In this document: positions 337 to 52,227 of the stretch, one piece after another
How the letters are laid out: the number at the start of each line of letters is the position of its first letter
Numbering within the stretch: the first letter of the stretch is position 1
Assembly (NCBI RefSeq): GCF_030013205.1
Contig: NZ_CP122648.1
Length of the DNA: 64,000 nucleotides
Reading direction: 5' to 3' (one strand)
From: Escherichia coli
GTDB taxonomy: Bacteria > Pseudomonadota > Gammaproteobacteria > Enterobacterales > Enterobacteriaceae
The notes under the pieces: generated by a model
Database searches by the model: none
Seen by the model: only the letters and a program-made list of their open reading frames with translations
Told to the model about the DNA's origin: nothing
Position numbers and translations under genes: made by a program

Positions 337-760
<424 letters not shown>

Positions 761-8946: not shown

Positions 8947-9205
8947 CGTGTCAGACGGGCGTCAGGCTGCCGTAATGGCAAGTTGCGTCCGGATCAGGCC
9001 GCAGGGATAAAACTCTGCGGCCTTTTTCGTAAGAAAAATGCAACGGTTGCAAGCGGATAATATTCTGCGGAATGCGCAGCACAGAGTGAAGACGTGACGG
9101 ATTCCGGAACAGAAAAACAGTCGTAGAATCAGCGGCAAGCCGGAAAGGTTCCGGTGAGGCGCAATGTTGCGGGGGCTTTATCCCTGGTGGCATTGGTTGC
9201 TGGAG

Positions 9206-9273
9206 AGAGAAAACCCCCGCACGTTGCAGGTATGCACCTGACAACACCACGGGGGCCATTCTTGCATCCAAAC
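9206..9273 (-). ncRNA. rdl: Rdl-type antisense sRNA, copy 2, approximate ends
   Basis: Paralogous position in repeat unit 2; the 5' portion diverges from copy 1. Confidence 0.35.
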
Positions 9274-9321
9274 AATACAAGAATAGCCGCGAAACGTTGT
9301 CATTACAACAGAGGCGGCTAT

Positions 9322-9429
9322 ATGACGCTCGCAGAGCTGGGCATGGCCTTCTGGCATGATTTAGCGGCTCCGGTCATTGCTGGCATTCTTGCCAGCATGA
9401 TCGTGAACTGGCTGAATAAGCGGAAGTAA
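9322..9429 (+). CDS. Ldr family type I toxin, 35 aa, copy 2
   Basis: Same peptide as copy 1, in the second repeat unit. Confidence 0.8.
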   Translation: MTLAELGMAFWHDLAAPVIAGILASMIVNWLNKRK

Positions 9430-9687
9430 CGTGTCAGACGGGCGTCAGGCTGCCGTAATGGCAATTTGCGCCCGGACCAGGCCGCAGGGATAAAACTCTG
9501 CGGCCTTTTTCGTAAGAAAAATGCAACGGTTGCAAGCGGATAATATTCTGCGGAATGCGCAGCACAGAGTGAAGAAGTGATGGATTCCGGAACAGAAAAA
9601 CAGTCGTAGAATCAGCGGCAAGCCGGAAAGGTTCCGGTGAGGCGCAATGTTGCGGGGGCTTAATCCCTGGTGGCATTGGTTGCTGGA

Positions 9688-9756
9688 GAGAGAAAACCCC
9701 CGCACGTTGCAGGTATGCACCTGACAACACCACGGGGGCCATTCTTGCATCTAGAC
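9688..9756 (-). ncRNA. rdl: Rdl-type antisense sRNA, copy 3, approximate ends
   Basis: Paralogous position in repeat unit 3. Confidence 0.35.
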
Positions 9757-9998: not shown

Positions 9999-10907
9999 TT
10001 ATTGCGGGTAAGGCACCCAGTCGCCGCCGTTCAGGCGAACGTACGGTTTATCCTGGTATTGAATAACTACTGCATTTGAGTTCTCGGAGACCGGTGCTGT
10101 TTGTGGTAACCCACTGGTGAGTTTTTTCCAGTCAACATTGTCTTCGGAGAAAATCTTGCCATCAAGAACGCGAACCACCAGATCGGAGATAGCCAGGAAG
10201 CTGCTCGGTTGGTCGATGACAATCGGTGCCCCCTGATGTGGTGCCTTCATGCCGAAGAATTTCACCCCAACGGGGACGTCTGTGATAGACGGGCTAGGGA
10301 TATCACGTAGGCCAGATACCTGCATTCTGTCGCCCTTCAGCGCGCCACCGTGTTCCGGCACCACTACCACCATCACTTTACGACCCGACTTCTCCAGTTC
10401 AGTAAAGAAGGCGTCCAGCTCATCAAAGAATTTCTGTGCTCGCGCTTTGTAATCCGCTGTTTTGCTGACGCCCGGATAATGGTTGCCGTCATGCAGTGGA
10501 AGCGTGTTGTAGAACGTGGCACTACGGCTGTTTTTATCTTTTTCGGTAACGTCCAGCCAGCGGTTAAGCACGGCGGTATCGTCATAAACCGGCGAACCAT
10601 CAAAGCCCAGCAAAATAACCGGCAGATTTGTTTGATCCATCAATTCGGTCTGCATGCCGCCATTTTCGCGAACTTCTTTCAAAAAACCGCCGAACTGGCC
10701 GTTATGTCCCATCATCAGGTGCTGGGTAAAGCCCAGTTTCGACAGGTTATCAAACAGATAGCAGTCATTATTTGCCGGTTGATACAGATTAGTATGCGAA
10801 GTCTGCCCGCAGCTGGCGCGCAGTAAACGGATCGCCGCCGGAAGGTGACATTGCCGTCGAGTACTGGAGTACGGTGGCGAAAATTCCGGCTCGCCGTGGC
10901 GAAGCGA
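9999..10907 (-). pseudogene. bcsG: 5'-truncated remnant of cellulose phosphoethanolamine transferase gene (C-terminal about 240-300 codons only)
   Basis: Minus-strand frame is open from 10907 to the stop at 9999 and encodes ...YLFDNLSKLGFTQHLMMGHNGQFGG...NGGDWVPYPQ; no N-terminal TM region, promoter or RBS; abuts a bcsC fragment on the opposite strand. Confidence 0.7.
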
Positions 10908-29992: not shown

Positions 29993-30245
29993 TTATAGGG
30001 CTTTTCTTTAAGGGTAGTCATTCGCTCCGCCTGGTGGGCGACAAACCGTGCGGTGGATCACGTTTATTAACTTGTCAAAAAATATAACGCACTAATATCA
30101 ATGGAATTTATAAAAATACGGATTTCGTGTTGTTTTTCATTTTCAGAACATTCAATCCTGCTCTCGCCGCAATCATGATATGCCATTCCTGATCTGGGTA
30201 ATAGGCACAGGCTATCTTATTGATAGTTTATATTCATGTAATTGA

Positions 30246-30259
30246 TTGATTCCTATCAA
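30246..30259 (+). promoter_or_regulatory. FNR box (TTGAT-N4-ATCAA) upstream of ccp
   Basis: Perfect TTGATTCCTATCAA about 108 bp upstream of the ccp ATG; ccp is remembered as anaerobically (FNR/OxyR) activated. Confidence 0.55.
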
Positions 30260-30366
30260 AAAGCGTATTTCCCTGTTTTTTATGATGGCTTTGTCTCGCA
30301 GAGACGTTTGCAGCATTCTGGAAAATTTTCTGGGTCACAATAACTCACCACCGTGAGGGAAGAATA

Positions 30367-31764
30367 ATGAAAATGGTCTCACGTATTACCGCGATCGGCC
30401 TGGCTGGCGTCGCGATTTGCTATTTAGGGTTATCTGGTTATGTGTGGTACCACGATAATAAACGCAGTAAACAGGCTGATGTTCAGGCATCTGCTGTCAG
30501 TGAAAATAATAAGGTTTTAGGCTTTCTCCGCGAAAAAGGATGCGACTATTGCCACACGCCTTCGGCAGAATTACCCGCCTATTATTATATTCCTGGCGCG
30601 AAACAGTTGATGGATTACGACATTAAGCTTGGATATAAATCTTTTAACCTCGAGGCCGTGCGTGCGGCTCTGCTGGCTGATAAACCCGTTTCGCAAAGCG
30701 ATCTGAATAAGATTGAATGGGTGATGCAGTATGAAACCATGCCACCAACGCGTTATACCGCGCTACACTGGGCGGGTAAGGTGAGTGATGAAGAGCGGGC
30801 GGAAATACTCGCCTGGATTGCAAAACAGCGCGCGGAATATTACGCCAGCAATGACACTGCACCGGATCATCGTAATGAACCGGTGCAGCCCATCCCGCAA
30901 AAACTGCCTACCGATGCGCAAAAAGTGGCGTTGGGCTTTGCGCTGTATCACGATCCCCGTTTATCGGCGGATAGCACCATTTCATGCGCTCATTGCCATG
31001 CGTTGAATGCGGGGGGCGTCGATGGCAGAAAAACATCGATTGGTGTTGGTGGCGCAGTGGGGCCGATTAACGCGCCGACGGTATTTAACTCAGTATTTAA
31101 CGTTGAGCAGTTCTGGGATGGTCGTGCGGCAACATTGCAGGATCAGGCTGGTGGACCGCCGTTGAATCCGATTGAAATGGCGTCGAAATCCTGGGACGAA
31201 ATTATTTCTAAGCTGGAAAAAGATCCGCAGCTTAAAGCGCAGTTCCTCGAAGTCTATCCGCAAGGTTTCAGTGGCGAAAATATTACTGATGCCATTGCTG
31301 AATTTGAGAAAACATTAATTACGCCGGATTCCCCATTTGATAAATGGTTGCGTGGAGATGAGAATGCGCTGACGGCACAACAGAAAAAAGGCTATCAATT
31401 ATTTAAAGATAATAAATGTGCAACTTGTCATGGTGGTATTATTCTCGGCGGACGTTCCTTCGAACCGTTGGGGCTGAAAAAAGACTTTAACTTTGGTGAA
31501 ATTACGGCGGCGGATATTGGTCGTATGAATGTTACTAAAGAAGAGCGCGATAAATTGCGTCAGAAAGTACCCGGTTTACGTAACGTTGCACTAACGGCAC
31601 CGTACTTCCATCGCGGTGATGTGCCGACGCTGGACGGGGCGGTGAAACTGATGTTGCGCTATCAGGTAGGCAAAGAGCTGCCGCAGGAGGATGTGGATGA
31701 TATCGTAGCTTTCCTGCACAGTCTGAACGGGGTTTACACGCCGTATATGCAGGATAAACAATAA
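30367..31764 (+). CDS. ccp: di-haem cytochrome c peroxidase
   Basis: 465 aa; several CxxCH haem-binding motifs (CDYCH, CAHCH, CATCH). Confidence 0.92.
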   Translation: MKMVSRITAIGLAGVAICYLGLSGYVWYHDNKRSKQADVQASAVSENNKVLGFLREKGCDYCHTPSAELPAYYYIPGAKQLMDYDIKLGYKSFNLEAVRAALLADKPVSQSDLNKIEWVMQYETMPPTRYTALHWAGKVSDEERAEILAWIAKQRAEYYASNDTAPDHRNEPVQPIPQKLPTDAQKVALGFALYHDPRLSADSTISCAHCHALNAGGVDGRKTSIGVGGAVGPINAPTVFNSVFNVEQFWDGRAATLQDQAGGPPLNPIEMASKSWDEIISKLEKDPQLKAQFLEVYPQGFSGENITDAIAEFEKTLITPDSPFDKWLRGDENALTAQQKKGYQLFKDNKCATCHGGIILGGRSFEPLGLKKDFNFGEITAADIGRMNVTKEERDKLRQKVPGLRNVALTAPYFHRGDVPTLDGAVKLMLRYQVGKELPQEDVDDIVAFLHSLNGVYTPYMQDKQ

Positions 31765-31773
31765 TTAATTTAA

Positions 31774-31805
31774 TCGCCCGAACAGGAATGTTTGGGCGAT
31801 TTTCA
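31774..31805 (+). terminator. rho-independent terminator after ccp
   Basis: TCGCCCGAACA / loop / TGTTTGGGCGA followed by TTTTC. Confidence 0.7.
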
Positions 31806-31875
31806 TTACGATAATAAAGTCTGTTTTTAATATTATCATGTTAAATGTTTATATTATAAAAAGTCGTTTTTCTGC

Positions 31876-31895
31876 TTAGGATTTTGTTATTTAAA
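31876..31895 (+). promoter_or_regulatory. GAD box (GadE binding site) upstream of gadA
   Basis: TTAGGATTTTGTTATTTAAA, matching the 20-bp GAD-box consensus, about 80 bp upstream of the gadA ATG. Confidence 0.7.
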
Positions 31896-31974
31896 TTAAG
31901 CCTGTAATGCCTTGCTTCCATTGCGGATAAATCCTACTTTTTTATTGCCTTCAAATAAATTTAAGGAGTTCGAA

Positions 31975-33375
31975 ATGGACCAGAAGCTGTTAACGGATTT
32001 CCGCTCAGAACTACTCGATTCACGTTTTGGCGCAAAGGCCATTTCTACTATCGCGGAGTCAAAACGATTTCCGCTGCACGAAATGCGCGATGATGTCGCA
32101 TTCCAGATTATCAATGATGAATTATATCTTGATGGCAACGCTCGTCAGAACCTGGCCACTTTCTGCCAGACCTGGGACGACGAAAACGTCCATAAATTGA
32201 TGGATTTGTCGATCAATAAAAACTGGATCGACAAAGAAGAATATCCGCAATCTGCAGCCATCGACCTGCGTTGCGTAAACATGGTTGCCGATCTGTGGCA
32301 TGCGCCTGCGCCGAAAAATGGTCAGGCCGTTGGCACCAACACCATTGGTTCTTCCGAGGCCTGTATGCTCGGCGGGATGGCGATGAAATGGCGTTGGCGC
32401 AAGCGTATGGAAGCCGCAGGTAAGCCGACCAACAAACCAAACCTGGTGTGCGGTCCGGTACAAATCTGCTGGCATAAATTCGCCCGCTACTGGGATGTGG
32501 AGCTGCGTGAGATCCCTATGCGCCCCGGTCAGTTGTTTATGGACCCGAAACGCATGATTGAAGCCTGCGACGAAAATACCATCGGCGTGGTGCCGACTTT
32601 CGGCGTGACCTACACCGGTAACTATGAGTTCCCGCAACCGCTGCACGATGCGCTGGATAAACTCCAGGCCGACACCGGTATCGACATCGACATGCACATC
32701 GACGCTGCCAGCGGTGGCTTCCTGGCACCGTTCGTTGCCCCGGATATCGTCTGGGACTTCCGCCTGCCGCGTGTGAAATCGATCAGTGCTTCAGGCCATA
32801 AATTCGGTCTGGCTCCGCTGGGCTGCGGCTGGGTTATCTGGCGTGATGAAGAAGCGCTGCCGCAGGAACTGGTGTTCAACGTTGACTACCTCGGTGGTCA
32901 GATTGGGACTTTCGCCATCAACTTCTCCCGCCCGGCGGGTCAGGTAATTGCACAGTACTATGAATTCCTGCGCCTTGGTCGTGAAGGCTATACCAAAGTA
33001 CAGAACGCTTCCTACCAGGTTGCCGCTTATCTGGCGGATGAAATCGCCAAACTGGGGCCGTATGAGTTCATCTGTACCGGTCGCCCGGACGAAGGCATCC
33101 CGGCGGTTTGCTTCAAACTGAAAGATGGTGAAGATCCGGGATACACCCTCTACGACCTCTCTGAACGTCTGCGTCTGCGCGGCTGGCAGGTTCCGGCCTT
33201 CACTCTCGGCGGTGAAGCCACCGACATCGTGGTGATGCGCATTATGTGTCGTCGCGGCTTCGAAATGGACTTTGCTGAACTGTTGCTGGAAGACTACAAA
33301 GCCTCCCTGAAATATCTCAGCGACCACCCGAAACTGCAGGGTATTGCCCAGCAGAACAGCTTTAAACATACCTGA
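31975..33375 (+). CDS. gadA: glutamate decarboxylase alpha
   Basis: 466-aa product starting [16 protein letters not shown] within ORF 31912..33375; PLP-lysine region [10 protein letters not shown]. Confidence 0.93.
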
Positions 33376-33394
33376 TAACATAACGTTGTAAAAA

Positions 33395-33438
33395 CCGAAT
33401 GCCCAACTTTTAAAAAACAGCTGGGCATTCGGTTGCTT
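33395..33438 (+). terminator. putative terminator after gadA
   Basis: CCGAATGCCCA ... TGGGCATTCGG hairpin. Confidence 0.5.
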
Positions 33439-33742
33439 ATTAATCGCAATAATATATTGGCTGTCTATTCATCGTGTTGATAAGATATATGTTATATGAA
33501 TGTTTATTAAATGTGCGATTATATTTAATGTAACGGAAATGGATTATTTGCTTACTATTAATTTCCCTGCGTTCTTAAACACGTTTTTGTATTATAAATC
33601 CAGTCATCCTGCCCGTAGAACATCACACATTATCATCCTGTTCTCCCGCTTCGTTTAAATTTATTTATCAATCAATTTGACTTAAGAGAGCGGCGTGCTA
33701 CATTAATAAACAGTAATATGTTTATGTAATATTAAGTCAACT

Positions 33743-34567
33743 ATGCAATCATTACATGGGAATTGTCTAATTGCGTACGCAAGACATAAATATATTCTCA
33801 CCATGGTTAATGGTGAATATCGCTATTTTAATGGCGGTGATCTGGTTTTTGCGGATGCAAGCCAAATTCAAGTGGATAAGTGTGTTGAGAATTTCGTATT
33901 AGTTTCAAGAGACACGCTTTCATTATTTCTCCCGATGCTCAAGGAGGAGGCATTAAAACTTCATGCACATAAAAAAGTTCCTTCATTACTCGTTCATCAC
34001 TGTACCAGAGATATTCCTGTTTTTCAGGAGGTTGCGCAACTATCGCAGAATAAGAATCTTCGCTATGCAGAAATGCTACGTAAAAGGGCATTAATCTTTG
34101 CGTTGTTATCTGTTTTTCTTGAGGATACGCAGTTTATACCGTTACTTCTGAACGTGTTGCAACCGAATATGCGAACACGAGTTTGTACGGTCATCAATAA
34201 TAATATCGCCCATGAGTGGACATTAGCCCGAATCGCTAGCGAATTGTTGATGAGTCCAAGCCTGTTAAAGAAAAAATTGCGCGAAGAAGGTACGTCATAT
34301 TCACAGTTGCTTACTGAGTGTAGGATGCAGCGTGCTTTACAACTTATTGTTATATATGGGGTTTCAATTAAGAGAGTTGCAGTGTCCTGTGGATATCACA
34401 GCGTGTCGTATTTCATTTACGTCTTTCGAAATTATTATGGGATGACGCCCACAGAGTATCAGGAGCGATCGGCGCAGGGATTGTCGAACCGTGACTCGGC
34501 GGCAAGTATTGTTGCGCAAGGGAATTTTTACGGCACTGACTGTTCTGCGGAAGGAATAAGATTATAG
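33743..34567 (+). CDS. gadX: AraC-family acid-resistance regulator
   Basis: 274 aa; C-terminal AraC HTH; conserved position after gadA. Confidence 0.92.
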   Translation: MQSLHGNCLIAYARHKYILTMVNGEYRYFNGGDLVFADASQIQVDKCVENFVLVSRDTLSLFLPMLKEEALKLHAHKKVPSLLVHHCTRDIPVFQEVAQLSQNKNLRYAEMLRKRALIFALLSVFLEDTQFIPLLLNVLQPNMRTRVCTVINNNIAHEWTLARIASELLMSPSLLKKKLREEGTSYSQLLTECRMQRALQLIVIYGVSIKRVAVSCGYHSVSYFIYVFRNYYGMTPTEYQERSAQGLSNRDSAASIVAQGNFYGTDCSAEGIRL

Positions 34568-34583
34568 AGTTTTACTCTGACAT

Positions 34584-34689
34584 AAAAAAAACCCGGCATA
34601 GGGGACCGGGAAGAGGATAGTCTGCCGTCTCCAGACTAATAAACCGTTATAACACTCCCTGTTGGCACGGGAAACTTTGTGCTCTCAGT
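34584..34689 (-). ncRNA. gadY: GadY small RNA, antisense to the gadX 3' end
   Basis: Minus-strand sequence ACTGAGAGCACAAAGTTTCCCGTGCCAACAGGGAG...CCCGGTCCCCTATGCCGGGTTTTTTTT matches my recollection of GadY and ends in a hairpin plus U-run. Confidence 0.75.
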
Positions 34690-34935
34690 AAGTTAAATAT
34701 AACTTTTACTGGAAATAAGATCAGCCATTTTTTTATAAACATAAGCTATACGCTGTGCGAAAATATATTCGTGTTGCATTTACTTATTATCAATTAACTG
34801 TTATGCAAAACTACTTTGTGGATAAATTTTGGTCCTACCAAATCTGGCAGTTTTTGCGCTAAGAAACAGTCTGGCATCATTTCATTAGTATACTGAAATT
34901 GAAATAATCGCAGTAATGAAATATAAGGGATAGTC

Positions 34936-35664
34936 ATGACTCATGTCTGCTCGGTGATCCTCGTTCGTCGTTCATTCGATATTTATCATGAACAGCAAAA
35001 AATATCGTTGCACAACGAGAGTATCCTGTTACTGGATAAAAATTTGGCAGACGATTTTGCGTTTTGTTCACCGGATACGCGACGACTGGATATCGATGAG
35101 CTGACAGTTTGCCATTACTTACAAAATATTCGTCAGATACCACGCAATTTAGGGTTACATAGCAAAGACCGTCTGTTAATTAACCAGTCACCCCCCATGC
35201 CGCTGGTGACGGCGATTTTTGATAGTTTCAATGACTCCGGGGTAAATTCACCGATACTGAGCAAAATGCTCTATCTTTCCTGTTTATCGATGTTTTCTCA
35301 TAAGAAAGAACTGATCCCCTTACTTTTCAATAGTATCAGTACTGTTTCAGGAAAAGTTGAACGCCTTATTAGCTTTGATATCGCCAAACGTTGGTATCTG
35401 CGCGATATTGCGGAAAGAATGTATACCAGCGAGAGTCTAATCAAAAAAAAGTTGCAGGATGAAAATACCTGTTTCAGTAAAATATTACTCGCCTCCAGGA
35501 TGTCGATGGCCAGACGATTACTCGAGTTACGTCAAATTCCTCTGCATACTATTGCGGAAAAATGTGGCTATAGCAGTACATCGTACTTTATAAACACATT
35601 TCGACAATATTATGGTGTAACGCCACATCAGTTTGCGCAACATTCGCCAGGTACCTTTTCCTGA
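34936..35664 (+). CDS. gadW: AraC-family acid-resistance regulator
   Basis: 242 aa; AraC HTH C-terminus. Confidence 0.92.
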   Translation: MTHVCSVILVRRSFDIYHEQQKISLHNESILLLDKNLADDFAFCSPDTRRLDIDELTVCHYLQNIRQIPRNLGLHSKDRLLINQSPPMPLVTAIFDSFNDSGVNSPILSKMLYLSCLSMFSHKKELIPLLFNSISTVSGKVERLISFDIAKRWYLRDIAERMYTSESLIKKKLQDENTCFSKILLASRMSMARRLLELRQIPLHTIAEKCGYSSTSYFINTFRQYYGVTPHQFAQHSPGTFS

Positions 35665-36026
35665 CATATTTTGCATTTGAATATTGGTCAGGATCTCACA
35701 CCTGCTTCATGTGAAACTCTTCCCTGATGATTTCTGCCGGGCTACCGGCTAGTTCTCTTTCGCAGTTTGCCAGGCGGTATAGGTATTTTCAGGAGGAAAA
35801 GACTCGGCATGTTTGGGATTATTAAGCTGACAATTCATACGATTACGGGAATGTGGGTCAGTATTGTGTTGTTTAAATTGATGACGAATGGCTGGAGTGG
35901 TTTCTACTTTCAGTGCTGTGTACTAAGCCTGGTATTCCTGACGGTTAGCTGGTTGTTGAGTGGTGAATGGTTAGCGGGAAAGAGTAAGGCTGAACCCTCA
36001 CGTTCAACCTTACTCTCATTTACACG

Positions 36027-39000
36027 TTACGCTTTTTTAAAGCGGGCAAAGAGATGTTCCACTACAACGAAAAAGACCGGAACGAAGTAAATTGCCAGCA
36101 CTGTTGCGGCAAACATCCCGCCCATCACGCCGGTACCTACCGCGTTTTGCGCGCCAGAACCGGCACCATGACTGATAACCAGCGGCAGCACGCCGAGAAT
36201 AAAGGCCAGAGAGGTCATCAGGATTGGGCGTAAACGCATCCGCGCCGCTTCGATGATTGCCTCTATCGGCGTTTTCCCTTCTTTCTGCATCATCTCAACG
36301 GCAAATTCGACAATCAGGATGGCGTTCTTGGCGGAAAGCCCGATGGTGGTCAGCAAACCAACCTGGAAGTAGACGTCATTACTTAAGCCGCGTAGATCGG
36401 TGGCCAGTAATGCGCCAACGACGCCTAACGGTACAACCAACATCACCGAGAACGGAATTGACCAGCTCTCATAAAGTGCGGCGAGGGCGAGGAACACCAC
36501 GACCAGTGAAATGGCATACAGCGCGGGAGCCTGATTTGAGGATAACGCTTCCTGATACGACAGTCCGGTCCATGAGTAGCCGACGCCTGCCGGAAGTTTA
36601 GCGACCAGGTCTGCCATAAATTTCATGGCGTCACCGGTACTTTTCCCGGCCGCCGCTTCACCTAAAATCTCCATTGACGGGATGCCGTTGTAGCGTTCCA
36701 GTCGCGGTGAACCATAGGTCCATTCGGTAGACGAATAGGCAGAAAGCGGTGCCATCGTGCCAGAGGCGTTGCGTACATACCATTGGTTGATGTTATCCGG
36801 CAACATACGGAACGGCGTGCCTGCCTGGACATACACTTTTTTCACCCGCCCCTGGTTGAGGAAGTCGTTCACGTAGCTGCTGCCGAAGGCGGTGGAAATT
36901 GTCTGGTTGATATCAGACAGCGCCACGCCCATCGCTTCAGCTTTCGCGGCGTTGACGTTCACTTTGAACATCGGCGTATCTTCCAGTCCGTTCGGACGTA
37001 CCCCGGTGACTTGATTCGGTGATTGCGCTGCCAGTGATAATAGCTCGTTTCGCGCCTGGGTCAGTTTTTCGTGCCCCAGGTTGCCGTTGTCCAGCAGTTC
37101 CATATCAAAACCTGACGCGGTACCCAGTTCAGCCACCGCGGGTAAGTTGAACGGGAAGACGACGGCTTTATTGATACTGCTTAACGCAATCATTGCCCGC
37201 TGAATGATCGCGGTAACCGAGTTTTCCTCACCGACACGTTCAGACCACGGCTTGAGACTGATAAACGCCAGACCGTTGTTTTGCCCCTGGCCGCTGAAGC
37301 CAAAGCCGCCAACGGTAAACACCGACTGAACATTATCTTTCTCTTTAGTCAGATAATAATCCGTCACCTGTTGCAGCACTTTCGTGGTGTTAACCATGGT
37401 GGCACCGGAAGGTAACTGCGCGGTGGTCATAAATACCCCCTGATCCTCTTCTGGTAAGAAAGAGGTCGGCGTACGCAGGAACAGCACCGCCATCCCAGCG
37501 CAAATCAGCAGGTAGACCACCATGTAGCGACCGGTACAACGCAACAGCGAGCGGGTGCTGTCGGTATAGTGCTGAGTTGATTTTTCAAACAGCGTGTTGA
37601 AGCGTGCGAACAGGGCGTTAGGTTTATGACCGCCTTCCGGCGCGGCTTTCAGAATGGTGGCGCACAGGGCAGGGGTCAGGCTCATTGCCACAAATACTGA
37701 AAGCAGCATGGAGGAGATCAGCGTGATGGAGAACTGGCGGTAGATCTCCCCGGTTGCACCGCTCATAAAGGCCATCGGCATAAACACTGCGGAAAGAACA
37801 ACGGCAATCCCGACCAGCGCACGTTGGATCTGCCCCATCGATTTATGCGTCGCTTCCTTCGGCGGTAGCTTATCTTCCGCAATGACACGCTCGACGTTCT
37901 CCACCACCACGATGGCGTCATCCACCAGTAACCCTATCGCCAGCACCATCCCGAACATAGTTAACGTGTTGATGGTGAAACCGACCGCCGACAAGATCGC
38001 AAACGTCCCGAGAATAACCACCGGTACGGCAATCGTCGGGATGATTGTGGCACGGAAATTCTGCAAAAACAGATACATGACCAGGAAGACGAGGATGATA
38101 GCCTCAACCAGTGTTTTGAAAACTTCCTGAATAGAAATTTCGATAAACGGCGTGGTGTCGTAAGGATAAACCGTCTTCAGACTTGCCGGGAAATAGGCTG
38201 ATAAGCGGTTCAGTTCCTCTTTGACTGCCCGCGAGGTATCCAGGGCGTTTGCTCCGGCAGCCAGTTTGATGGCGATCCCGGCAGCAGGTTTGCCGTTATA
38301 GCGCGCCACGGTGGAATAATCTTCCGCCCCAAGTTCGACGCGGGCGACATCACGCAGCAGCACTTGCGAACCATCTTGCTGAACTTTCAACAGGATTTTG
38401 CCAAATTCTTCCGGCGTTTGCAGACGCGTCTGCACAATGATCGAGGCGTTTAGTTGCTGGTCTGCCGCCTGTGGCATGCCACCCAGTTGACCACCGGAAA
38501 TCTGGTTGTTTTGCACCTTAATCTGGGAAATAACATCGGAAGGTACCAGATTGTATTTATTGAGTTTTTGCGGGTCCAGCCAGATACGCATGGCGTACTC
38601 GGAACCAAAGAGCTGTACGCTACCAACGCCCGCGGTACGGCTTAGCGGGTCTTTGATATTAGACGCTACATAGTCCGCGATATCGTACTGGTTGAGGCTG
38701 CCGTTATCAGAAATAAACGCCGCTACCATCAGAATATTACTGCTCGACTTATCAACGCTAATCCCCTGCTGCTGCACCGCTTCAGGTAATGAAGGCATAG
38801 CGAGTTGCAGTTTATTTTGCACCTGAACCTGTGCGATATCAGGAGATGTCCCAGTCTCGAAGGTCAGAGTGATAGAGGCATTACCCGCCGCATCACTGGT
38901 TGAAGACATGTACATCAGGCCATCAAGCCCATTCATATTTTGCTCAATCACCTGAGTGACCGAGTCTTCTACCGTTTGCGCATCGGCACCTGGATAGGTA

Positions 39001-39140
39001 GCGCTGACGGTAATGGTCGGTGGCGCAATCTGCGGATACTGCGCAACCGGTAAGTTCATGATCGCCAGACCACCTGCAAGCATCATAATAATGGCAAGTA
39101 CCCAGGCAAAAACCGGGCGATCAATAAAATAGTTAGCCAT
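36027..39140 (-). CDS. mdtF: RND multidrug efflux pump, inner-membrane transporter
   Basis: 1037-aa AcrB-family ORF. Confidence 0.93.
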
Positions 39141-39164
39141 GAAAGTCCCCTTAAGCCTGCAACG

Positions 39165-40322
39165 TTATTGTTTCGATTCGGTGCTGGCGTTTTCCTGGCT
39201 GGAGGAAATTGCTCGTGCTTTGATACCCGGACGAATGCGTTGCAAACCGGAAACGATCACCCGATCGCCAGCCTGCAAGCCAGAGGTGACAACCCACTGG
39301 TCGCCGATGGCTTTGCTGGCTTCGATTTCGCGTAGCTGCACGACATCGTCTTTATCCAGAATGAGCGCCGTTGCTTTACCCTGGGCGTTGTGGGTGACGC
39401 CTTCCTGCGGCACCAGTAATACATTCTGGCGGCTACCTTCATCCACTAATGCCGTAACGTACATGCCAGGCAGCAAGTCACCATTTGGGTTGGGGAAAAT
39501 CGCCCGTAACGTCACGGAGCCCGTGGTTTCATCCACCGTCGGGTCGGAGAATTTCAGCGTGCCGGTCTGGCTGTAACGTTTACCATTTTCCAGATTGAGC
39601 TGTACTGGCGTACTGCCCTGAACCTGTTTGATTTGCCCACTGGCGACCTCTTCTTTCATACGCAAGAAATCCTGCACCGACTGCGTGAGATCGACATAAA
39701 TCGGGTCCAGACGTTGTACGGTAACCAGCGAATCTGCCTGATTAGCGGTAACGAGTGCGCCGACGGTCACCGACGATTTCCCGCTGACGCCCGTAATCGG
39801 CGAGGTGACATTCGCGTATTGCAAATTGATCGTCGCCTGTTCAACAGCCGCTTTGGCGACGGTGACATTGGCTTCTGCTTCATTCAGCTGGGTGCGCGCG
39901 GTGTCGTAATCCTGACGGCTAACGTAGTTGGTCTTCAGCAACGATGCCTGGCGGTTAAAGGTGATGCGGGCATTGCTGGCGGTAGAGAGCGCTTTCGCCA
40001 GCGTGCCTTTGGCGGAGTTCAGCTCGGCCTGTAAAGGTGCAGGATCAATCTGATACAGCGAATCGCCCTGGTTCACTTTATCGCCTTCGATAAAGTTGCG
40101 TTTAATGATAATACCGCCAACCTGGGGACGTATCTCGGCAACTTCATAAGGAACGGTTCTACCGGGCAATTCGCTCAATACATTGACCGAACCGGGGGAG
40201 AGTGTGACGACACCGACCTCAGGCGTCATGGCGGCGGCGTTTTCCGCCGATTTGTCATCGCAGGCGGTGAGCATCGCGCCGCAGAATAACAACGGTATTA
40301 ACAGCTTTCTTCTTCTGTTCAT
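39165..40322 (-). CDS. mdtE: RND efflux periplasmic adaptor (membrane fusion protein) lipoprotein
   Basis: 385 aa; lipobox LTAC; AcrA-like. Confidence 0.93.
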   Translation of the reverse strand: MNRRRKLLIPLLFCGAMLTACDDKSAENAAAMTPEVGVVTLSPGSVNVLSELPGRTVPYEVAEIRPQVGGIIIKRNFIEGDKVNQGDSLYQIDPAPLQAELNSAKGTLAKALSTASNARITFNRQASLLKTNYVSRQDYDTARTQLNEAEANVTVAKAAVEQATINLQYANVTSPITGVSGKSSVTVGALVTANQADSLVTVQRLDPIYVDLTQSVQDFLRMKEEVASGQIKQVQGSTPVQLNLENGKRYSQTGTLKFSDPTVDETTGSVTLRAIFPNPNGDLLPGMYVTALVDEGSRQNVLLVPQEGVTHNAQGKATALILDKDDVVQLREIEASKAIGDQWVVTSGLQAGDRVIVSGLQRIRPGIKARAISSSQENASTESKQ

Positions 40323-40660
40323 TTTAGTCCCTGAAAATTCTTGAGAAATAACGGTTCTTTAAATTGCGCGCGAGGAGAGATATGAGGGATTTACAGACCA
40401 GCGGCATAGTGGGGTTGTCAGCCAGTAAGGTGGGATACAGGCATAGTGATCGACATGGTGAGGTCAACGACAAAAAAAATGTTGCCGTTCTGCCAACAGT
40501 TCCTGCCAGCATTCGGGCAACGAAGGGTTCTACTGGTGGATACACATACCAGGGGAATAAAGTCGTTTTAACCTCTCCTTTAGTAATCACCGGGGGTAAT
40601 GAAATCAGCATCTGCATCCCTCGTCATGCCAGCCATCAATTTCAGTTGCTTATGTCCTGA

Positions 40661-44350: not shown

Positions 44351-45121
44351 TTAATGATCGAGGACGATCAGTGGTGAATGGTTGGCAGGATCTTTAAGTA
44401 CGGTAATATCCGCGCCGTAGAGCATTGTCAGCGCCTGCTGTGTCAATACGTCCTGCGGTTTACCATTTGCGATAACCTTTCCTTTTTGCATTAATACAAT
44501 ACGGTCTGCATAACGCGCGGCAAGATTTAGATCGTGCAATACGCAGCAAACATTGAACTGCCGTTCGTGAACTAACTGGCGTAATAAACGGAACAAGTGC
44601 TGCTGATGGTGAATATCCAGCGCCGAAGTTGGTTCATCAAGAAATAACCATTTCGGTGAGGGAGTAGGTTCCCAGAGTTGCACCAGCAGGCGCGCTAATT
44701 GTACGCGCTGTTGTTCACCACCGGATAATTGCCGATAGTCGCGGTTTGCTAACGCCTGACAGTCACATAACGCCATTATTTGTGCTGTTTCATTATCCTG
44801 ATTACCAGTACGATGCGGATGCCGACCCATCTGGATAACTTCTTGTACGCTGAATGGAAACGCCATGTGGCTATTTTGACGCATCACGGCCCGGTGTTTC
44901 GCCAGTTCAGTAATCGACCATTCATTTAATGGCTTATTAAACAACCGACATTCGCCGCTATCAGGTTGAAGATAGCCGGTTAACTGGCGAAGCAGCGTAG
45001 ATTTTCCCGCACCATTAGGGCCGAGAATGGCAACAATTTCCCCACCGGGAAAAGTCAGCGAGACATTGTCAGTCAGACGCCGCCCCTGAAGGCTATAAAC
45101 CAGATTCTGGGCGCTGATCAT
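44351..45121 (-). CDS. chuV: haem ABC transporter ATP-binding protein
   Basis: 256 aa from the internal ATG ([11 protein letters not shown]...); Walker [10 protein letters not shown]; signature LSGGEQQR; 4-nt overlap with the upstream permease gene. Confidence 0.85.
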
Positions 45122-46110
45122 GTGATCCTCCGGTTGCGCAGAATCAACCACATAAAATAAGGACCGCCAAGCAGGCTGGTTAATAATCCCACGGGCATTT
45201 CTGCTGGCTGTACCAGCGTGCGGGCAAGCGTGTCTGCCATCAGCAATAAACAGGCTCCGGCGAGGGCGGAGCAAGGGATTAGCCAGCGGTGATTTGCCCC
45301 GGTAGTCATACGAATCAGATGCGGGATCACCAGGCCAATAAAGCCGATAATGCCGCTTACCGATACGGCGGCACCAACGAGCAGTGAGCTCACTAACAGT
45401 AATTGCTGGCGTTTACGCTTAACGTTCACGCCGAGGTAGTGGGCTTCTTCATCACCGAGCTGCAGTAAATTCAGCGTTCCGGCGAGACAAGTTGTTGCGA
45501 TAATGGCCGGTAGGATGAATGAACTGGCAACCAATAACGTCGGCCATTGCGCCTTTCCAAGATTGCCCATCATCCACAATGTGAGTTGTCGTAGCTGCTG
45601 CTCATCGCCGATATAGCTCAGGATGCCGATCGCTGCGCCGCACAGGGCATTGATGGCGATACCGGCGAGTAATAATTGCATCATGCTGCCATCGCGATGG
45701 CGCTGCGTGATGAGAAAAATGATGGTGCAGACCACTAAACTTCCGGCAATGGCAAACACCATTTGCTCATAGAGCACCAGCACCACTGGGAAGGAGAAGG
45801 GCAGCACAATAGCAACGCCAACCATTAATGCAGAACCGCTACTGACGCCGAGTAATCCAGGGTCAGCCATTGGGTTGCGAAAAAGCCCCTGCATAATTAC
45901 CCCGGCGGTTGCCAACGCTGCACCTACCAGCACCGCCAGCAAAACCCGTGGTAGACGAATATTGAGCCAGATATCGCGGTATTCCTCATCAAAAAGGGCA
46001 TCAAAACTGATCTTTAACGCTCCCTGACTGGCACCGAACAGCACCAGGGCAAGCAATAATAGTGATAGCCCCATAAAGACCCTGGCGGATGAAAATGAAT
46101 CCTTGAGCAC
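45118..46110 (-). CDS. chuU: haem ABC transporter permease (FecCD family)
   Basis: 330-aa polytopic ORF, translationally coupled to chuV. Confidence 0.85.
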
Positions 46111-46160
46111 GCAAAACTCCGTTATGACGTTGCGGCGCGGAGAGTCTGCGCCGCATGGGA

Positions 46161-46784
46161 TTACGCCGGTTTCAGGTCAGGTTCAATCAGACTGTAGATC
46201 TGCTTGTTGAGTGCTGGCGCGTTTGCCAGTTCATGAATGTGTGCAGCGACATCGGCACGGTGAACAAAACCATGACACTCCTGATTTTGTATCCGTTGTG
46301 CTTTGCCCGTTGCCGCCCCATCAAGCAGACCGCCAGGGCGGAGAATGGCGTAATCAAGCTGGCTGGTTTGCAACCAGCTTTCCGCCAGCGTTTTTTCCCG
46401 TACCGCCTGACCAAACGCAGCCTTTGCCCGCTCCGATAAAAACGGCCAGCTATCGCCGCATCCCAAAGAGGTCACCAGAATCATGCGACTGATGCCGGCC
46501 TTTTCGGCCTCATCAATCACTGTTCTGTGCGCCAGATAATCCTGAGCTCCTCCCATTGTTGAGATGATAAGCGCATCCGGGCCAGCTGCGCGGCAAGCAG
46601 CCGCAACTACGCTGGCATCACAGGCGTCGCCTGTAAAAACCTGTACGCCTTGTTGCGCCAGTTTCGTGGCGGCATCGGCATGACGAACGACAGCAACGAC
46701 CGGACGTTGTTCCGCCAGCGCCAGTTCAAGCGTTCTGGCACCCACACCTTTTCCGCCTGCGCCAAAGAGTAGCCACGGCGTCAT
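46161..46784 (-). CDS. chuY: NAD(P)-binding Rossmann-fold protein of the haem-utilisation operon (anaerobilin reductase-like)
   Basis: 207 aa with N-terminal GAGGKGVG dinucleotide-binding motif; 1-nt overlap with chuX. Confidence 0.75.
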   Translation of the reverse strand: MTPWLLFGAGGKGVGARTLELALAEQRPVVAVVRHADAATKLAQQGVQVFTGDACDASVVAAACRAAGPDALIISTMGGAQDYLAHRTVIDEAEKAGISRMILVTSLGCGDSWPFLSERAKAAFGQAVREKTLAESWLQTSQLDYAILRPGGLLDGAATGKAQRIQNQECHGFVHRADVAAHIHELANAPALNKQIYSLIEPDLKPA

Positions 46785-47278
46785 CAGGCGTGTTCCTTTA
46801 ACGATGCCGCCAGAGCATGGAAAGCGTTGACCTGTTCGCTCAGGAGCTGACGATGGTCATCCCTGCCGAGGAAGATTTTCAGCATGGCGCTGCCTTCCTT
46901 ATTGAAAAAGAGAATAGAGGCGGTGTCCATGCCCATAAATTTACGTTCGATCAAGGCAATATGCGTGCAGTTTTCTGCTTTGATATGCCCGGACATGCCG
47001 TGCTTTCCGCGTAGGTTGAAATAGCCGTGGCGGTGGAAACCCGAAGGCAGTTCGCCGCTAAATTCGAGGATTACATCGGCAGTATGTACTAACGTGGTGA
47101 CGTTGCCCCATTCGCAGACGGTATCCCAGACAGTATCGAATTTATCGCCTGACACTATGGTAGAGGAGGGCAGATTTTTCACTACTTCCAGCAGTGTGGT
47201 GTTGTATTGTTCGGCTACCACCTCCAGCGTACCGTCCGGCTCCGTTTTCAAAAATTCTTGTAACGAGACATGGCTCAT
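46784..47278 (-). CDS. chuX: small cytoplasmic haem-binding protein
   Basis: 164-aa ORF between chuW and chuY in the operon. Confidence 0.75.
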   Translation of the reverse strand: MSHVSLQEFLKTEPDGTLEVVAEQYNTTLLEVVKNLPSSTIVSGDKFDTVWDTVCEWGNVTTLVHTADVILEFSGELPSGFHRHGYFNLRGKHGMSGHIKAENCTHIALIERKFMGMDTASILFFNKEGSAMLKIFLGRDDHRQLLSEQVNAFHALAASLKEHA

Positions 47279-47290
47279 AAATCACTCCTG

Positions 47291-48628
47291 TTATGGTTTT
47301 TCACGCACAATCGCTGGCGCATTAAGTACCTGAATTAGTTCATTAAGAGACTGCAAAATATTGCTTGCCCAGAAACGACCTTCATTAGTCAGCCGCAGGC
47401 AAGTTGAAGCATCGCGACTTAAGCCTTTTTGGTGCCATTGAGCCAGTAACGGCGCGAGTTTTTCGGCATGTGGCGTAAGTTCATCCAGCGGTACACGCGC
47501 TGTTTCAACACCTGACTGCAAGGTATGACGCCATTGCGCATCACGTTCGGCGTTACGCATGATCATCATCAGCGGTTTTTTGCCTGCCGCGACGGATTCA
47601 TGCCAGGTCTGAAGATTGCGTTCGTTCATCCAGGAGTAACCATTAATCGAACCGCCGGCTCCGGAACCAAAGGCCAGACAATCGGCACCTTGTTTAATCA
47701 GCAGGTTATAGAGATTGCGTTCGCGTGTGGTACGGCCCCAGTGGCTGTTACTGATGCAGCGCCAACCGGCTTCGTCCATGAAGTCACACCCTTGCAGATA
47801 AAGATCGCGACGTTCTGCCGGAGAGGGCACGGTAGTACGCCCATTTTCCACGGCTTTGCCCAGCGGTGTATTGGGCAGGACATTGAGCGCATAGAGATCG
47901 ACGCCGTCGAGACCGATATCGCGAGCAATAGCCAGATCTTCTCCCCAGGTTTGCGCATCCTGACCCGGCAGGCCAAACAGCAGGTCACAGACCACCGCTG
48001 CACGGTCGCGTTTGACCAGGCTTTCCATAAACGCAATGGCGGTTGGGCCATCCGAGGTGCGGGCCATTTTCTTGCGGATTTTGCTGTTAAACGACTGAAT
48101 ACCAATTGAGAAGCGGTTTGCTCCTGCATCAAGGCAAGCATCGATTCGCTCAGCGTCAAAATTCAGTACCCGGCCTTCGATAGTGATTTCACAATCAGGG
48201 GTCAGTGGCAGCTTTTCTCGTAATGTATTGATAATTCTGGCTAAATCGTGTGCAGAAAGCGCGGAAGGCGTGCCGCCACCGAAATAGACCGCGTGGATGG
48301 GGGCAGACTGATGCAATACGCTGTCCGCTTCCATTTCTATTTCACGAATCAGGGCGTCGGTATAATGAGCACACGCATCTTCATTAAAACGGTTCTGATA
48401 AAAACCACAAAACGTGCAGTGTGTCGCACAAAAAGGAATGTGTAGATAAACCAGTCGCTTACGTGGTGATACCGTTTGATTGATCATCTCTTGCCAGGTC
48501 TGTGCCAGTTGCTCTTTGGCAACCGGAATGGCTCCACGAAACGGCATCATGGCGCGCCTGTCTTTAAATGGCTGATCACCGTCTAAAGCAAAATGTGGCG
48601 TGAGATCCAGGGTGTTATTTGCGTTCAT
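47291..48628 (-). CDS. chuW: radical-SAM, HemN-like anaerobic haem-degrading enzyme
   Basis: 445 aa; radical-SAM cysteine motif CATHCTFC near the N-terminus. Confidence 0.8.
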   Translation of the reverse strand: MNANNTLDLTPHFALDGDQPFKDRRAMMPFRGAIPVAKEQLAQTWQEMINQTVSPRKRLVYLHIPFCATHCTFCGFYQNRFNEDACAHYTDALIREIEMEADSVLHQSAPIHAVYFGGGTPSALSAHDLARIINTLREKLPLTPDCEITIEGRVLNFDAERIDACLDAGANRFSIGIQSFNSKIRKKMARTSDGPTAIAFMESLVKRDRAAVVCDLLFGLPGQDAQTWGEDLAIARDIGLDGVDLYALNVLPNTPLGKAVENGRTTVPSPAERRDLYLQGCDFMDEAGWRCISNSHWGRTTRERNLYNLLIKQGADCLAFGSGAGGSINGYSWMNERNLQTWHESVAAGKKPLMMIMRNAERDAQWRHTLQSGVETARVPLDELTPHAEKLAPLLAQWHQKGLSRDASTCLRLTNEGRFWASNILQSLNELIQVLNAPAIVREKP

Positions 48629-48647
48629 TCGTCTGATTTAAATCCAT

Positions 48648-49562
48648 TTATTGCGGCCAAAGCTGCTGGTGTAAAGACTCAACGACATCAGCAATACGCG
48701 GACCCATTCCCAGAATCAGGTTTTGATCAACGGTGATAATGCGCTGGTTTTTCCATGCGGCAGTGTGGGTAATTCCGGCAATAGAACGTAGCCGATTAAT
48801 ATCGCCATCGACCATTTGTGAGGTTACGACAATCACTTCTGGATTGGCCGCAATCAGTGATTCTGCACTGTAGCTTTTGTACTGCTGGTGGGTTGCGACG
48901 TTTTCTGCTCCGGCAAGCGAAAGAATGGCGTCCGCGACGCTGCCTTTACCGGCAACTTGTGGCGCACTTCCGCCTGCGGAGAGAATAAACATGGCTTTAA
49001 CCGGGGCTTTTTTGGCCGCCACGTTTTGCTGTACTCGCTCCAGGCGTTGGTTGATCTGTGTCACCAGCGCCTCGCCTTGTTCAGGAACCTGTAGCGTTTT
49101 TGCCAGTTGGCGAATGTTGGCGTACATCTGCTCAAGGGTGGCAGGCACACGCGGCAGGGTAACGACGTTGACTTTCTGCGCCCGTAGTTGGTCGAGCACA
49201 ATTTGCGGTCCAGCATCCTGCCAGGTAATTACGCTATCCGGGCGAAGTGACAAAATGCCTTCGCTGCTGAGTTGTTTCCAGTAGCCAATATGCGGCAGTT
49301 TGGCGGTTTCTGGTGGATAAGATGTCGTTTCATCGACACCAACCACGCGTTCGCCAGCGCCCATCGCGTAGATTAGCTCCGTCAGCGATCCTCCTGCGAC
49401 CACGATACGTTCGGCAGCCGTTACGCTAAAAGCCCAGCTAAGAGCCAGTACTGCCGTAAACAATTTTTTTCGTTTTACCGCGGTCTTCGCGGCAGAGGCC
49501 ACGGCTGAAATACATAACGTTAGTGGGGAAAAAAGAAACGGCCTGGTGATGATCCTTGGCAT
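48648..49562 (-). CDS. chuT: periplasmic haem-binding protein of the ABC system
   Basis: ORF 48648..49640; start placed at the ATG at 49562 (304 aa) because a Fur-box-like sequence at 49587-49606 would otherwise lie inside the coding region; start uncertain. Confidence 0.75.
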   Translation of the reverse strand: MPRIITRPFLFSPLTLCISAVASAAKTAVKRKKLFTAVLALSWAFSVTAAERIVVAGGSLTELIYAMGAGERVVGVDETTSYPPETAKLPHIGYWKQLSSEGILSLRPDSVITWQDAGPQIVLDQLRAQKVNVVTLPRVPATLEQMYANIRQLAKTLQVPEQGEALVTQINQRLERVQQNVAAKKAPVKAMFILSAGGSAPQVAGKGSVADAILSLAGAENVATHQQYKSYSAESLIAANPEVIVVTSQMVDGDINRLRSIAGITHTAAWKNQRIITVDQNLILGMGPRIADVVESLHQQLWPQ

Positions 49563-49586
49563 AATATGAGAACTCTTATCAAATTG

Positions 49587-49606
49587 AGAATGATCATGAT
49601 TATCAT
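49587..49606. promoter_or_regulatory. Fur box upstream of chuT (chuTWXYUV operon)
   Basis: GAATGATCATGATTATCATT resembles the Fur consensus GATAATGATAATCATTATC. Confidence 0.6.
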
Positions 49607-49935
49607 TTGGGTTATATATGAAATACAACCGTCGATTCAATACGTAAGGCGTTACAAGCGTATTTATTTTTGATTTTTATCAAGATGCTTCGTCAGCTAA
49701 CGTTCTTGTTACCGACTAAATTTCAGCGCGGGAAAAAGCTGAGAACCCAGAGATATCAAGGCTTGCAGAGCAAAGCGAAGAGAAAATTATCACTGTTAAC
49801 GACAAAGTTTAGTGATGAGGTCATGGGGGAATAACCATAAAAACAAAGTGGTTTCCAGGGCGCAGGATAAGTTTCATAACCCCCTGTTTATTGTGTTAAT
49901 GGCGGTTAAAAAAAGCTTGATCATAAAAAATTGAT

Positions 49936-49954
49936 CGATAATAATTCTCATTAT
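49936..49954. promoter_or_regulatory. Fur box in the chuT–chuA divergent region (candidate chuA promoter operator)
   Basis: GATAATAATTCTCATTATC, about 290 bp upstream of the chuA ATG. Confidence 0.6.
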
Positions 49955-50244
49955 CACGTTTGCGCTTAACAAAACACGACCATATGGATAACAAAACCAT
50001 AGCATTTGCAAGGGATAACGCACAGCGCTCTTCACTCCTGATGGGGCATATCGTTTTGCCTGACAAAGAGGGCGTGCTTTTGCGTATTTGCCGAGATACC
50101 AGGCAATTTCATGGGATATAAACGCCTGTAAACTCACCCGGCGAATATTATCGCTCTGAATTTTAAATAAATTTATTTTTCGCCAGCCACCCCGGTATTA
50201 ACCCAGGCAGCCAGCATTTTTTATTTTCCTCATGGAGAATCGCT

Positions 50245-52227
50245 ATGTCACGTCCGCAATTTACCTCGTTGCGTTTGAGTTTGTTGGCTTTGGCTGTTTC
50301 TGCCACCTTGCCAACGTTTGCTTTTGCTACTGAAACCATGACCGTTACGGCAACGGGGAATGCCCGTAGTTCCTTCGAAGCGCCTATGATGGTCAGCGTC
50401 ATCGACACTTCCGCTCCTGAAAATCAAACGGCTACTTCAGCCACCGATCTGCTGCGTCATGTTCCTGGAATTACTCTTGATGGTACCGGACGAACCAACG
50501 GTCAGGATGTAAATATGCGTGGCTATGATCATCGCGGCGTGCTGGTTCTTGTCGATGGTGTTCGCCAGGGAACGGATACCGGACACCTGAATGGTACTTT
50601 TCTTGATCCGGCGCTGATCAAGCGTGTTGAGATTGTTCGCGGACCTTCAGCATTACTGTATGGCAGTGGCGCGCTGGGTGGAGTGATCTCCTACGATACG
50701 GTCGATGCAAAAGATTTATTGCAGGAAGGACAAAGTAGTGGTTTTCGTGTCTTTGGTACTGGCGGCACGGGGGACCATAGCCTGGGATTAGGCGCGAGCG
50801 CGTTTGGGCGAACTGAAAATCTGGATGGTATTGTGGCCTGGTCCAGTCGCGATCGGGGTGATTTACGCCAGAGCAATGGTGAAACCGCGCCGAATGACGA
50901 GTCCATTAATAACATGCTGGCGAAAGGGACCTGGCAAATTGATTCAGCCCAGTCTCTGAGCGGTTTAGTGCGTTACTACAACAACGACGCGCGTGAACCA
51001 AAAAATCCGCAGACCGTTGAAGCTTCTGATAGCAGCAACCCGATGGTTGATCGTTCTACAATTCAACGCGATGCGCAGCTTTCTTATAAACTCGCCCCGC
51101 AGGGCAACGACTGGTTAAATGCAGATGCAAAAATTTACTGGTCGGAAGTCCGTATTAATGCGCAAAACACGGGGAGTTCCGGCGAGTATCGTGAACAGAT
51201 AACAAAAGGAGCAAGGCTGGAGAACCGTTCCACTCTATTTGCCGACAGTTTCGCTTCTCACTTACTGACATATGGCGGTGAGTATTATCGTCAGGAACAA
51301 CATCCGGGCGGCGCGACGACGGGCTTCCCGCAAGCAAAAATCGATTTTAGCTCTGGCTGGCTACAGGATGAGATCACCTTACGCGATCTGCCGATTACCC
51401 TGCTTGGCGGAACCCGCTATGACAGTTATCGCGGTAGCAGCGACGGCTACAAAGATGTTGATGCTGACAAATGGTCATCTCGTGCGGGGATGACTATCAA
51501 CCCGACCAACTGGCTGATGTTATTTGGCTCATATGCCCAGGCATTCCGCGCCCCGACGATGGGCGAAATGTATAACGATTCTAAGCACTTCTCGATTGGT
51601 CGCTTCTATACCAACTATTGGGTGCCAAACCCGAACTTACGTCCGGAAACTAACGAAACTCAGGAGTACGGTTTTGGGCTGCGTTTTGATGACCTGATGT
51701 TGTCCAATGATGCCCTGGAATTTAAAGCCAGCTACTTTGATACCAAAGCGAAGGATTACATCTCCACGACCGTCGATTTCGCGGCGGCGACGACTATGTC
51801 GTATAACGTCCCGAACGCCAAAATCTGGGGCTGGGATGTGATGACGAAATATACCACTGATCTGTTTAGCCTTGATGTGGCCTATAACCGAACCCGCGGC
51901 AAAGACACCGATACCGGCGAATATATCTCCAGTATTAACCCGGATACCGTTACCAGTACCCTGAATATTCCGATCGCTCATAGTGGCTTCTCTGTTGGTT
52001 GGGTCGGTACGTTTGCCGATCGCTCAACACATATCAGCAGCAGCTACAGCAAACAACCTGGCTATGGCGTGAATGATTTCTACGTCAGTTATCAAGGACA
52101 ACAGGCGCTCAAAGGCATGACCACTACTTTGGTGTTGGGTAACGCTTTCGACAAAGAGTACTGGTCGCCACAAGGCATCCCACAGGATGGTCGTAATGGA
52201 AAAATTTTCGTGAGTTATCAATGGTAA
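50245..52227 (+). CDS. chuA: TonB-dependent outer-membrane haem/haemoglobin receptor
   Basis: 660 aa; signal peptide; TonB-dependent receptor architecture; C-terminal aromatic residue (...SYQW). Confidence 0.9.
   Translation: MSRPQFTSLRLSLLALAVSATLPTFAFATETMTVTATGNARSSFEAPMMVSVIDTSAPENQTATSATDLLRHVPGITLDGTGRTNGQDVNMRGYDHRGVLVLVDGVRQGTDTGHLNGTFLDPALIKRVEIVRGPSALLYGSGALGGVISYDTVDAKDLLQEGQSSGFRVFGTGGTGDHSLGLGASAFGRTENLDGIVAWSSRDRGDLRQSNGETAPNDESINNMLAKGTWQIDSAQSLSGLVRYYNNDAREPKNPQTVEASDSSNPMVDRSTIQRDAQLSYKLAPQGNDWLNADAKIYWSEVRINAQNTGSSGEYREQITKGARLENRSTLFADSFASHLLTYGGEYYRQEQHPGGATTGFPQAKIDFSSGWLQDEITLRDLPITLLGGTRYDSYRGSSDGYKDVDADKWSSRAGMTINPTNWLMLFGSYAQAFRAPTMGEMYNDSKHFSIGRFYTNYWVPNPNLRPETNETQEYGFGLRFDDLMLSNDALEFKASYFDTKAKDYISTTVDFAAATTMSYNVPNAKIWGWDVMTKYTTDLFSLDVAYNRTRGKDTDTGEYISSINPDTVTSTLNIPIAHSGFSVGWVGTFADRSTHISSSYSKQPGYGVNDFYVSYQGQQALKGMTTTLVLGNAFDKEYWSPQGIPQDGRNGKIFVSYQW

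Follow-up and report, generated by a model that had tools for sequence, protein, structure and literature searches.

What does the minus strand encode in the interval between the AraC-family regulator genes gadX and gadW of this Escherichia coli strain, and what constrains its sequence? For this interval of the window analyzed here (the whole stretch of 64,000 nucleotides from contig NZ_CP122648.1), the initial annotation had proposed an RNA gene of about 106 nt, identified it as the antisense RNA GadY and named an alignment to gadY of K-12 as a suitable check. The reverse complement of positions 34584-34689 is a 106-nt sequence running from ACTGAGAGCAC to GCCGGGTTTTTTTT; on the plus strand, positions 34560-34700 include TAGAGTTTTACTCTGACATAAAAAAAACCCGGCATAGGGGACCGGGAAGAGG, and the 106-nt stretch of the minus strand opens with ACUGAGAGCAC and closes with GCCGGGUUUUUUUU. 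In an exact string search this sequence matched gadY (b4452) of K-12 MG1655 at 106 of 106 positions with zero mismatches, and blastn of the 106-mer gave an E-value of 1e-47, so a chance match can be dismissed. The coordinates proposed for the gene, with the +1 position at 34689 and the 3' end at 34584, are therefore exact. Further, the K-12 counterpart, a RefSeq ncRNA of 106 nt at NC_000913.3 3664864-3664969, likewise occupies the gadW-gadX interval on the opposite strand, 16 nt off gadX, such that the alignment bears out the proposal, with the same strand, neighbours and spacing in addition to the same sequence.

Further evidence comes from Rfam (release 15), in which the GadY family RF00122 matches positions 34579-34692 (minus strand) with 150 bits against a gathering score of 45, i.e., more than three times that threshold, and an E-value of 1.3e-32. 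The match covers model positions 1-114 of 114, with the consensus matched at every position, and it is the sole Rfam match within 30000-40000. Extending the K-12 alignment to 201 nt, with flanks of 71 nt on the upstream side of gadY and 24 nt on the downstream side, brings in one mismatch, at 34578, which lies outside the RNA; the upstream 71 nt, inclusive of a TATATT box, are the same as in K-12. As both the RNA and these upstream 71 nt are identical to those of K-12, we infer that gadY would be transcribed in this strain too. Taken together, 34584-34689 on the minus strand can be read as the gadY gene of E. coli, acting as it does in K-12, with a probability of roughly 0.96.

The gene is accordingly an ordinary, already known feature; GadY was described in 2004. 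Its recovery matters little as a discovery and is useful mainly for annotation, because the RefSeq/PGAP annotation carries no feature there: nothing is annotated under the gadY match in 15 of 15 E. coli genomes among the matches listed. The K-12 MG1655 record does carry a gadY ncRNA feature. A scan in which the gene is recovered can thus be taken to work properly.

The neighbours are those named in the initial annotation. On the plus strand, gadA (31975-33375; glutamate decarboxylase, TIGR01788, 692 bits) is followed by gadX (33743-34567), which encodes an AraC-family acid-resistance activator and is supported by the NF007432 GadX equivalog model (598 bits against a cut-off of 500) and by the RefSeq annotation of an identical strain. 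The RefSeq annotation further places gadW, an AraC-family regulator forming the downstream half of the gadX-gadW transcript, at 34936-35664 (plus strand) and mdtF at 36027-39140 (minus strand); these RefSeq gene names were taken from strains with 100% identity to window positions 34400-34950. The resulting order from NCBIfam and RefSeq annotation is gadA-gadX-(gadY)-gadW-mdtF, in which gadX, gadY and gadW follow one another as in K-12, the window being in the orientation that is the reverse complement of K-12's. Both gadX and gadW are intact open reading frames. Relative to K-12, gadX differs at 43 of 825 nucleotides (94.8% identity) and gadW at 17 of 729 (97.7%), as against 0 of 106 (100% identity) for gadY; at the protein level 263 of the 274 amino acids of GadX are identical (11 differ), as are 237 of the 242 of GadW.

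The geometry of this arrangement bears on the proposal that the RNA overlaps the 3' end of gadX. The TAG stop codon of gadX occupies 34565-34567, and the 3' end of gadY is located 16 nt past this stop, the same spacing as in K-12. Hence, the overlap does not extend to the open reading frame and concerns only the untranslated part of the gadX or gadX-gadW transcript; the proposal holds for the mRNA, i.e., the 3' UTR or intergenic transcript, and fails for the coding sequence. A terminator scan of 34400-35000 found no terminator-like site on the plus strand. As gadX is thus not followed by such a site ahead of gadW, its transcripts are expected to continue across the entire complement of gadY, and the overlap would then span all 106 nt rather than the 3' end of the RNA alone, which fits the published gadX-gadW co-transcript. 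The target of GadY would accordingly be the perfectly complementary plus-strand segment of the gadX 3' UTR or gadX-gadW intergenic region at 34584-34689, i.e., the same DNA read on the opposite strand.

In the same scan, the minus strand carried the single terminator-like site of the region, at 34584-34610, which is also recovered in the minimum free energy (MFE) fold and in the Rfam structure. It comprises a hairpin at 34610-34592 (CCCGGT-CCCCTAT-GCCGGG, nt 80-98 of the RNA), with a 6-bp stem containing five G-C pairs and a 7-nt loop, followed by eight U residues at 34591-34584. This is the GC hairpin plus U8 that had been anticipated for the 3' end. A bidirectional terminator that would also serve gadX was considered and rejected, as on the plus strand the hairpin is preceded by an A8 run and lacks a following T-run. 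Upstream of the terminator, a second hairpin (34618-34638, minus strand; nt 52-72) has a 7-bp stem UAGUCUG/CAGACUA in both the MFE and centroid folds and in the Rfam structure line, and a 5' hairpin domain (34643-34689, minus strand; nt 1-47) is seen in the MFE fold and the Rfam structure line; altogether, three elements are common to both folds and the Rfam structure line. A U-rich 3' tail and an AU-rich linker, UUUAUUA at nt 47-53, are also visible in the sequence.

Comparison across six Escherichia sequences shows the terminator hairpin to be invariant, as are all seven pairs of the second hairpin, such that covariation is uninformative there. The substitutions among the species amount to just G31U and U47C, both in the 5' hairpin domain, each of which disrupts a pair with no compensatory change. 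Over 28 pairs in these six sequences 97.6% are paired and compensatory changes number zero, 26 pairs never varying and two being broken in two sequences, a result that follows from the near invariance of the RNA and says nothing on its structure. Similarly, the predicted stability (MFE of -28.6 kcal/mol as against -26.2 +/- 3.3 for shuffled sequences, z = -0.73) is not distinctive. A peptide gene at this position was likewise considered and rejected: the intergenic open reading frames are of chance size (23-47 aa), and the one that extends over the greater part of gadY (a 31-aa frame at 34647-34742, minus strand) begins ahead of the +1 position of the RNA.

On the minus strand upstream of gadY, a putative -10 box, TATATT, was read by eye at 34696-34701 (positions -12 to -7); it is invariant in the six-sequence alignment and the same as in K-12. 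Separated from it by a 17-nt spacer is a candidate weak -35 element, CTGATC, at 34719-34724 (minus strand), also read by eye and invariant in the six sequences. A scan with the sigma-70 consensus made no call for a gadY promoter, which can be attributed to this element, as it matches TTGACA at only three of six positions. TATATT probably serves as the -10 element of the gadY promoter, and the poor -35 would fit a promoter of the sigma-S type.

The mechanism by which the RNA would act in this strain is taken from published work on the identical K-12 sequence, by way of secondary citations; the primary studies are reportedly those of Opdyke, Kang and Storz in 2004 and of Opdyke, Fozo, Hemm and Storz in 2011. 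Under this model, sigma-S RNA polymerase would transcribe gadY from the minus strand in stationary phase or mild acid, in line with the stationary-phase, rpoS/sigma-S-dependent accumulation of GadY (PMC3333887). The product would be a primary RNA of about 105 nt along with two shorter forms of about 90 and 59 nt, all in keeping with the three forms of 105, 90 and 59 nt described for GadY (PMC4574537), and it would be bound by Hfq, as in K-12 (PMC11300174; PMC10783499). Being encoded opposite the intergenic region, GadY is perfectly complementary to the gadX-gadW transcript, with which it would form a duplex. This duplex would then undergo endonucleolytic cleavage between the two open reading frames, with RNase III among the enzymes involved; in K-12, pairing of GadY between the gadXW open reading frames leads to cleavage and stabilization of the gadX mRNA (PMC2887942; PMC5415839), and RNase III-cleaved double-stranded RNA fragments have been captured at gadY (PMC7373196). 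The processed gadX mRNA would accumulate and yield more GadX protein, which would in turn switch on gadA, gadBC and other genes of the acid-fitness island and thereby raise glutamate-dependent acid resistance. GadY supplied from a plasmid in trans has been reported to restore gadX mRNA in a gadY-promoter mutant of K-12. Additionally, blocking GadY with dCas13a lowered gadX mRNA by 73-81% and sensitized cells to acid (PMC10783499).

The conservation of the RNA raises the further question of what holds its sequence in place. Of 5426 complete E. coli genomes, 5412 carry the gadY 106-mer at an identity of 99% or more, in every case on the chromosome, and over the surrounding 551 nt most genomes show 95-99% identity. 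Beyond E. coli, species-representative genomes were scanned with one 27-nt gadY pattern in which the stem positions were left free; it detected five loci, all from Escherichia, with E. whittamii among them, and each has a full-length Rfam GadY match of 123-150 bits. In these five loci gadY is 98.1-100% identical to the window (98.1% in both E. whittamii and Escherichia sp. E1V33), figures subject to ascertainment bias inasmuch as the pattern itself fixed 21 of the 106 positions and would miss species with a diverged gadY; as this was one pattern scan only, it does not establish that E. albertii, E. fergusonii or other species lack the gene. The flanking coding sequences are far less similar to those of the window: identity for gadX is 74.5-91.3% in the four loci in which it is not truncated (76.1% in E. 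whittamii and 74.5% in E1V33), and that for gadW is 75.6-94.8% in all five (75.6% and 77.2%, respectively). In the 16 nt that separate the gadX stop from the 3' end of gadY it drops to 19-75% (37.5% and 18.8%, respectively). In the six-sequence alignment the conserved block extends from about -36, thus including the invariant -10 box and the candidate -35, to the first base past the U-tract, beyond which conservation collapses. With these limits, the conserved block coincides with the minus-strand transcription unit.

A side observation concerns Escherichia sp. MOD1-EC7003, in which a 627-bp deletion (L007:1530-1550, corresponding to window 33700-34326) has removed the gadX promoter and approximately the first 191 codons of gadX. 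Its gadY is 100% intact despite this truncation; the locus is a single draft contig of 5.7 kb, so an assembly artefact is possible. An intact gadY beside a truncated gadX is no more than suggestive of some other constraint.

In a cis-antisense gene any mutation alters both partners at once, and complementarity therefore cannot be what fixes the sequence of gadY. Its near invariance beside the fast-evolving gadX and gadW argues for another constraint, and the contrast with the approximately 75% identity of these genes is a modest hint of a constraint beyond antisense pairing. Candidate sources include recognition by Hfq or by an RNase, trans targets such as sdiA, and a signal on the plus strand. 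It is conceivable, though on balance somewhat doubtful, that the constraint is strong and sequence-specific and that GadY is a core trans-regulator of Escherichia, beyond a local helper of gadX; conserved trans targets, Hfq or RNase recognition and a gadX-independent role would then be its likely sources.

A stronger form of this position, which we regard as unlikely, holds that GadY is mainly a trans-acting, Hfq-dependent small RNA that recognizes distant mRNAs by short imperfect seeds, its cis effect on gadX-gadW being secondary. It differs from the preferred reading in emphasis and not in the identity of the gene. It would account for the conservation of gadY at 98-100% where gadX and gadW are at approximately 75%, given that pairing is kept whatever the sequence. 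It also gains from the Hfq binding of GadY and from sdiA, which has been reported as a trans target (PMC11300174), and from the classification of gadY as 'trans-acting' (PMC7373196). However, the effect on gadX mRNA has been reproduced independently (PMC10783499), and the conservation could equally stem from Hfq or RNase recognition in the service of the cis reaction, or from plus-strand signals, even before allowing that the figures come from genomes picked by a pattern of 21 fixed gadY bases.

It is far less probable that the 106 nt matter mainly on the plus strand, where they would serve the gadX mRNA as a signal for processing or stability or as a 3'-end structure, with the minus-strand RNA being incidental. 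The same hairpins do form in the plus-strand transcript, and conservation as such does not distinguish the strands. Nevertheless, the U8 of the terminator is found on the minus strand only (the plus strand having the above-noted A8 before the hairpin), the conservation reaches the minus-strand -10 box and ends at the end of the minus-strand transcript, and in K-12 GadY has been detected as an RNA bound to Hfq. That an intact gadY might be silent or of no relevance in this strain, e.g., on account of an rpoS defect or altered gadX regulation, is just as improbable, for although gadX differs from K-12 at 5.2% of its nucleotides and at 11 amino acids and rpoS sits outside the window, K-12 has the very same promoter region (71 nt upstream), RNA and terminator, and gadX and gadW are intact open reading frames.

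Several further features were recorded elsewhere in the window. Relative to the otherwise 99.9%-identical strain CFSAN018748 (locus L008), approximately 10.3 kb of the bcs cellulose operon are missing from the region now at 9999-13882. The junction lies at 10826-10841: window positions 10312-10841 correspond to L008 1-530 and positions 10826-50000 to L008 10824-50000, the 16-nt overlap being a direct repeat or microhomology. The deletion leaves a C-terminal remnant of bcsG and a bcsC short of approximately 139 codons, bcsF, E, R, Q, A, B and Z having been lost altogether. Just 17 of 5426 complete E. coli genomes have a contiguous match across the junction, and these, among the matches listed, are all porcine isolates (O139:H1 and ETEC). 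Three tandem matches to the RdlD antitoxin RNA (82-90 bits) occupy 8725-9756 (minus strand), flanked by yhjV and the bcsG remnant; the K-12 locus is annotated with a single ldrD/rdlD pair. A chu/shu heme-uptake cluster at 44351-50247 follows yhiD and adjoins the acid-resistance genes gadE, hdeD, hdeA, hdeB and yhiD, with a match to the shuA/chuA 5' UTR thermoregulator (RF02597, 60.1 bits against a gathering score of 58) at 50216-50247; K-12 is not known to carry this cluster.

Among the other RNA genes of the window, tRNA-Pro(CGG), i.e., proK, is located at 337-413 (plus strand) and is followed in the proK-dppA spacer by two plus-strand matches to the RtT family (448-581 with 101 bits and 614-749 with 96 bits); nothing is annotated in this spacer in the K-12 record. 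A match to the small RNA ES205 (40472-40543, minus strand, 105 bits) lies between mdtE and gadE and overlaps an open reading frame on the opposite strand that RefSeq labels a 'hypothetical protein'. Two matches to the antisense RNA AgrB (106 and 98 bits) fall within 60477-60794 (minus strand).

In comparison with known systems, the closest counterpart is GadY itself (also IS183; b4452, RF00122) of K-12, with which the present locus shares all 106 of 106 nucleotides, the strand, the 16-nt spacing to the gadX stop, the location within the gadX-gadW interval, the terminator and 71 nt of upstream sequence. The RNA is thus without differences, whereas its partner gadX is here a diverged allele, with 94.8% nucleotide identity and 263 of 274 amino acids in common, and the 16 nt that separate its stop from the 3' end of gadY contain one substitution. 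A parallel of mechanism is offered by the OOP RNA of phage lambda and its target, the cII mRNA: as with GadY, a short cis-encoded antisense RNA overlaps the 3' end of the target and the duplex is cleaved by RNase III (PMC5415839). The two have no sequence relationship, and the outcomes are opposite, as cleavage directed by OOP destabilizes the cII mRNA and that directed by GadY leads to a more abundant gadX mRNA. Within the same window, the Rfam matches to RdlD (antisense to ldrD) and AgrB (antisense to dinQ) represent, like GadY, short cis-encoded antisense RNAs of E. coli. RdlD and AgrB repress small toxin genes, following the logic of type I toxin-antitoxin systems. GadY, in contrast to these toxin-repressing RNAs, is a positive regulator of the mRNA of a transcription factor.
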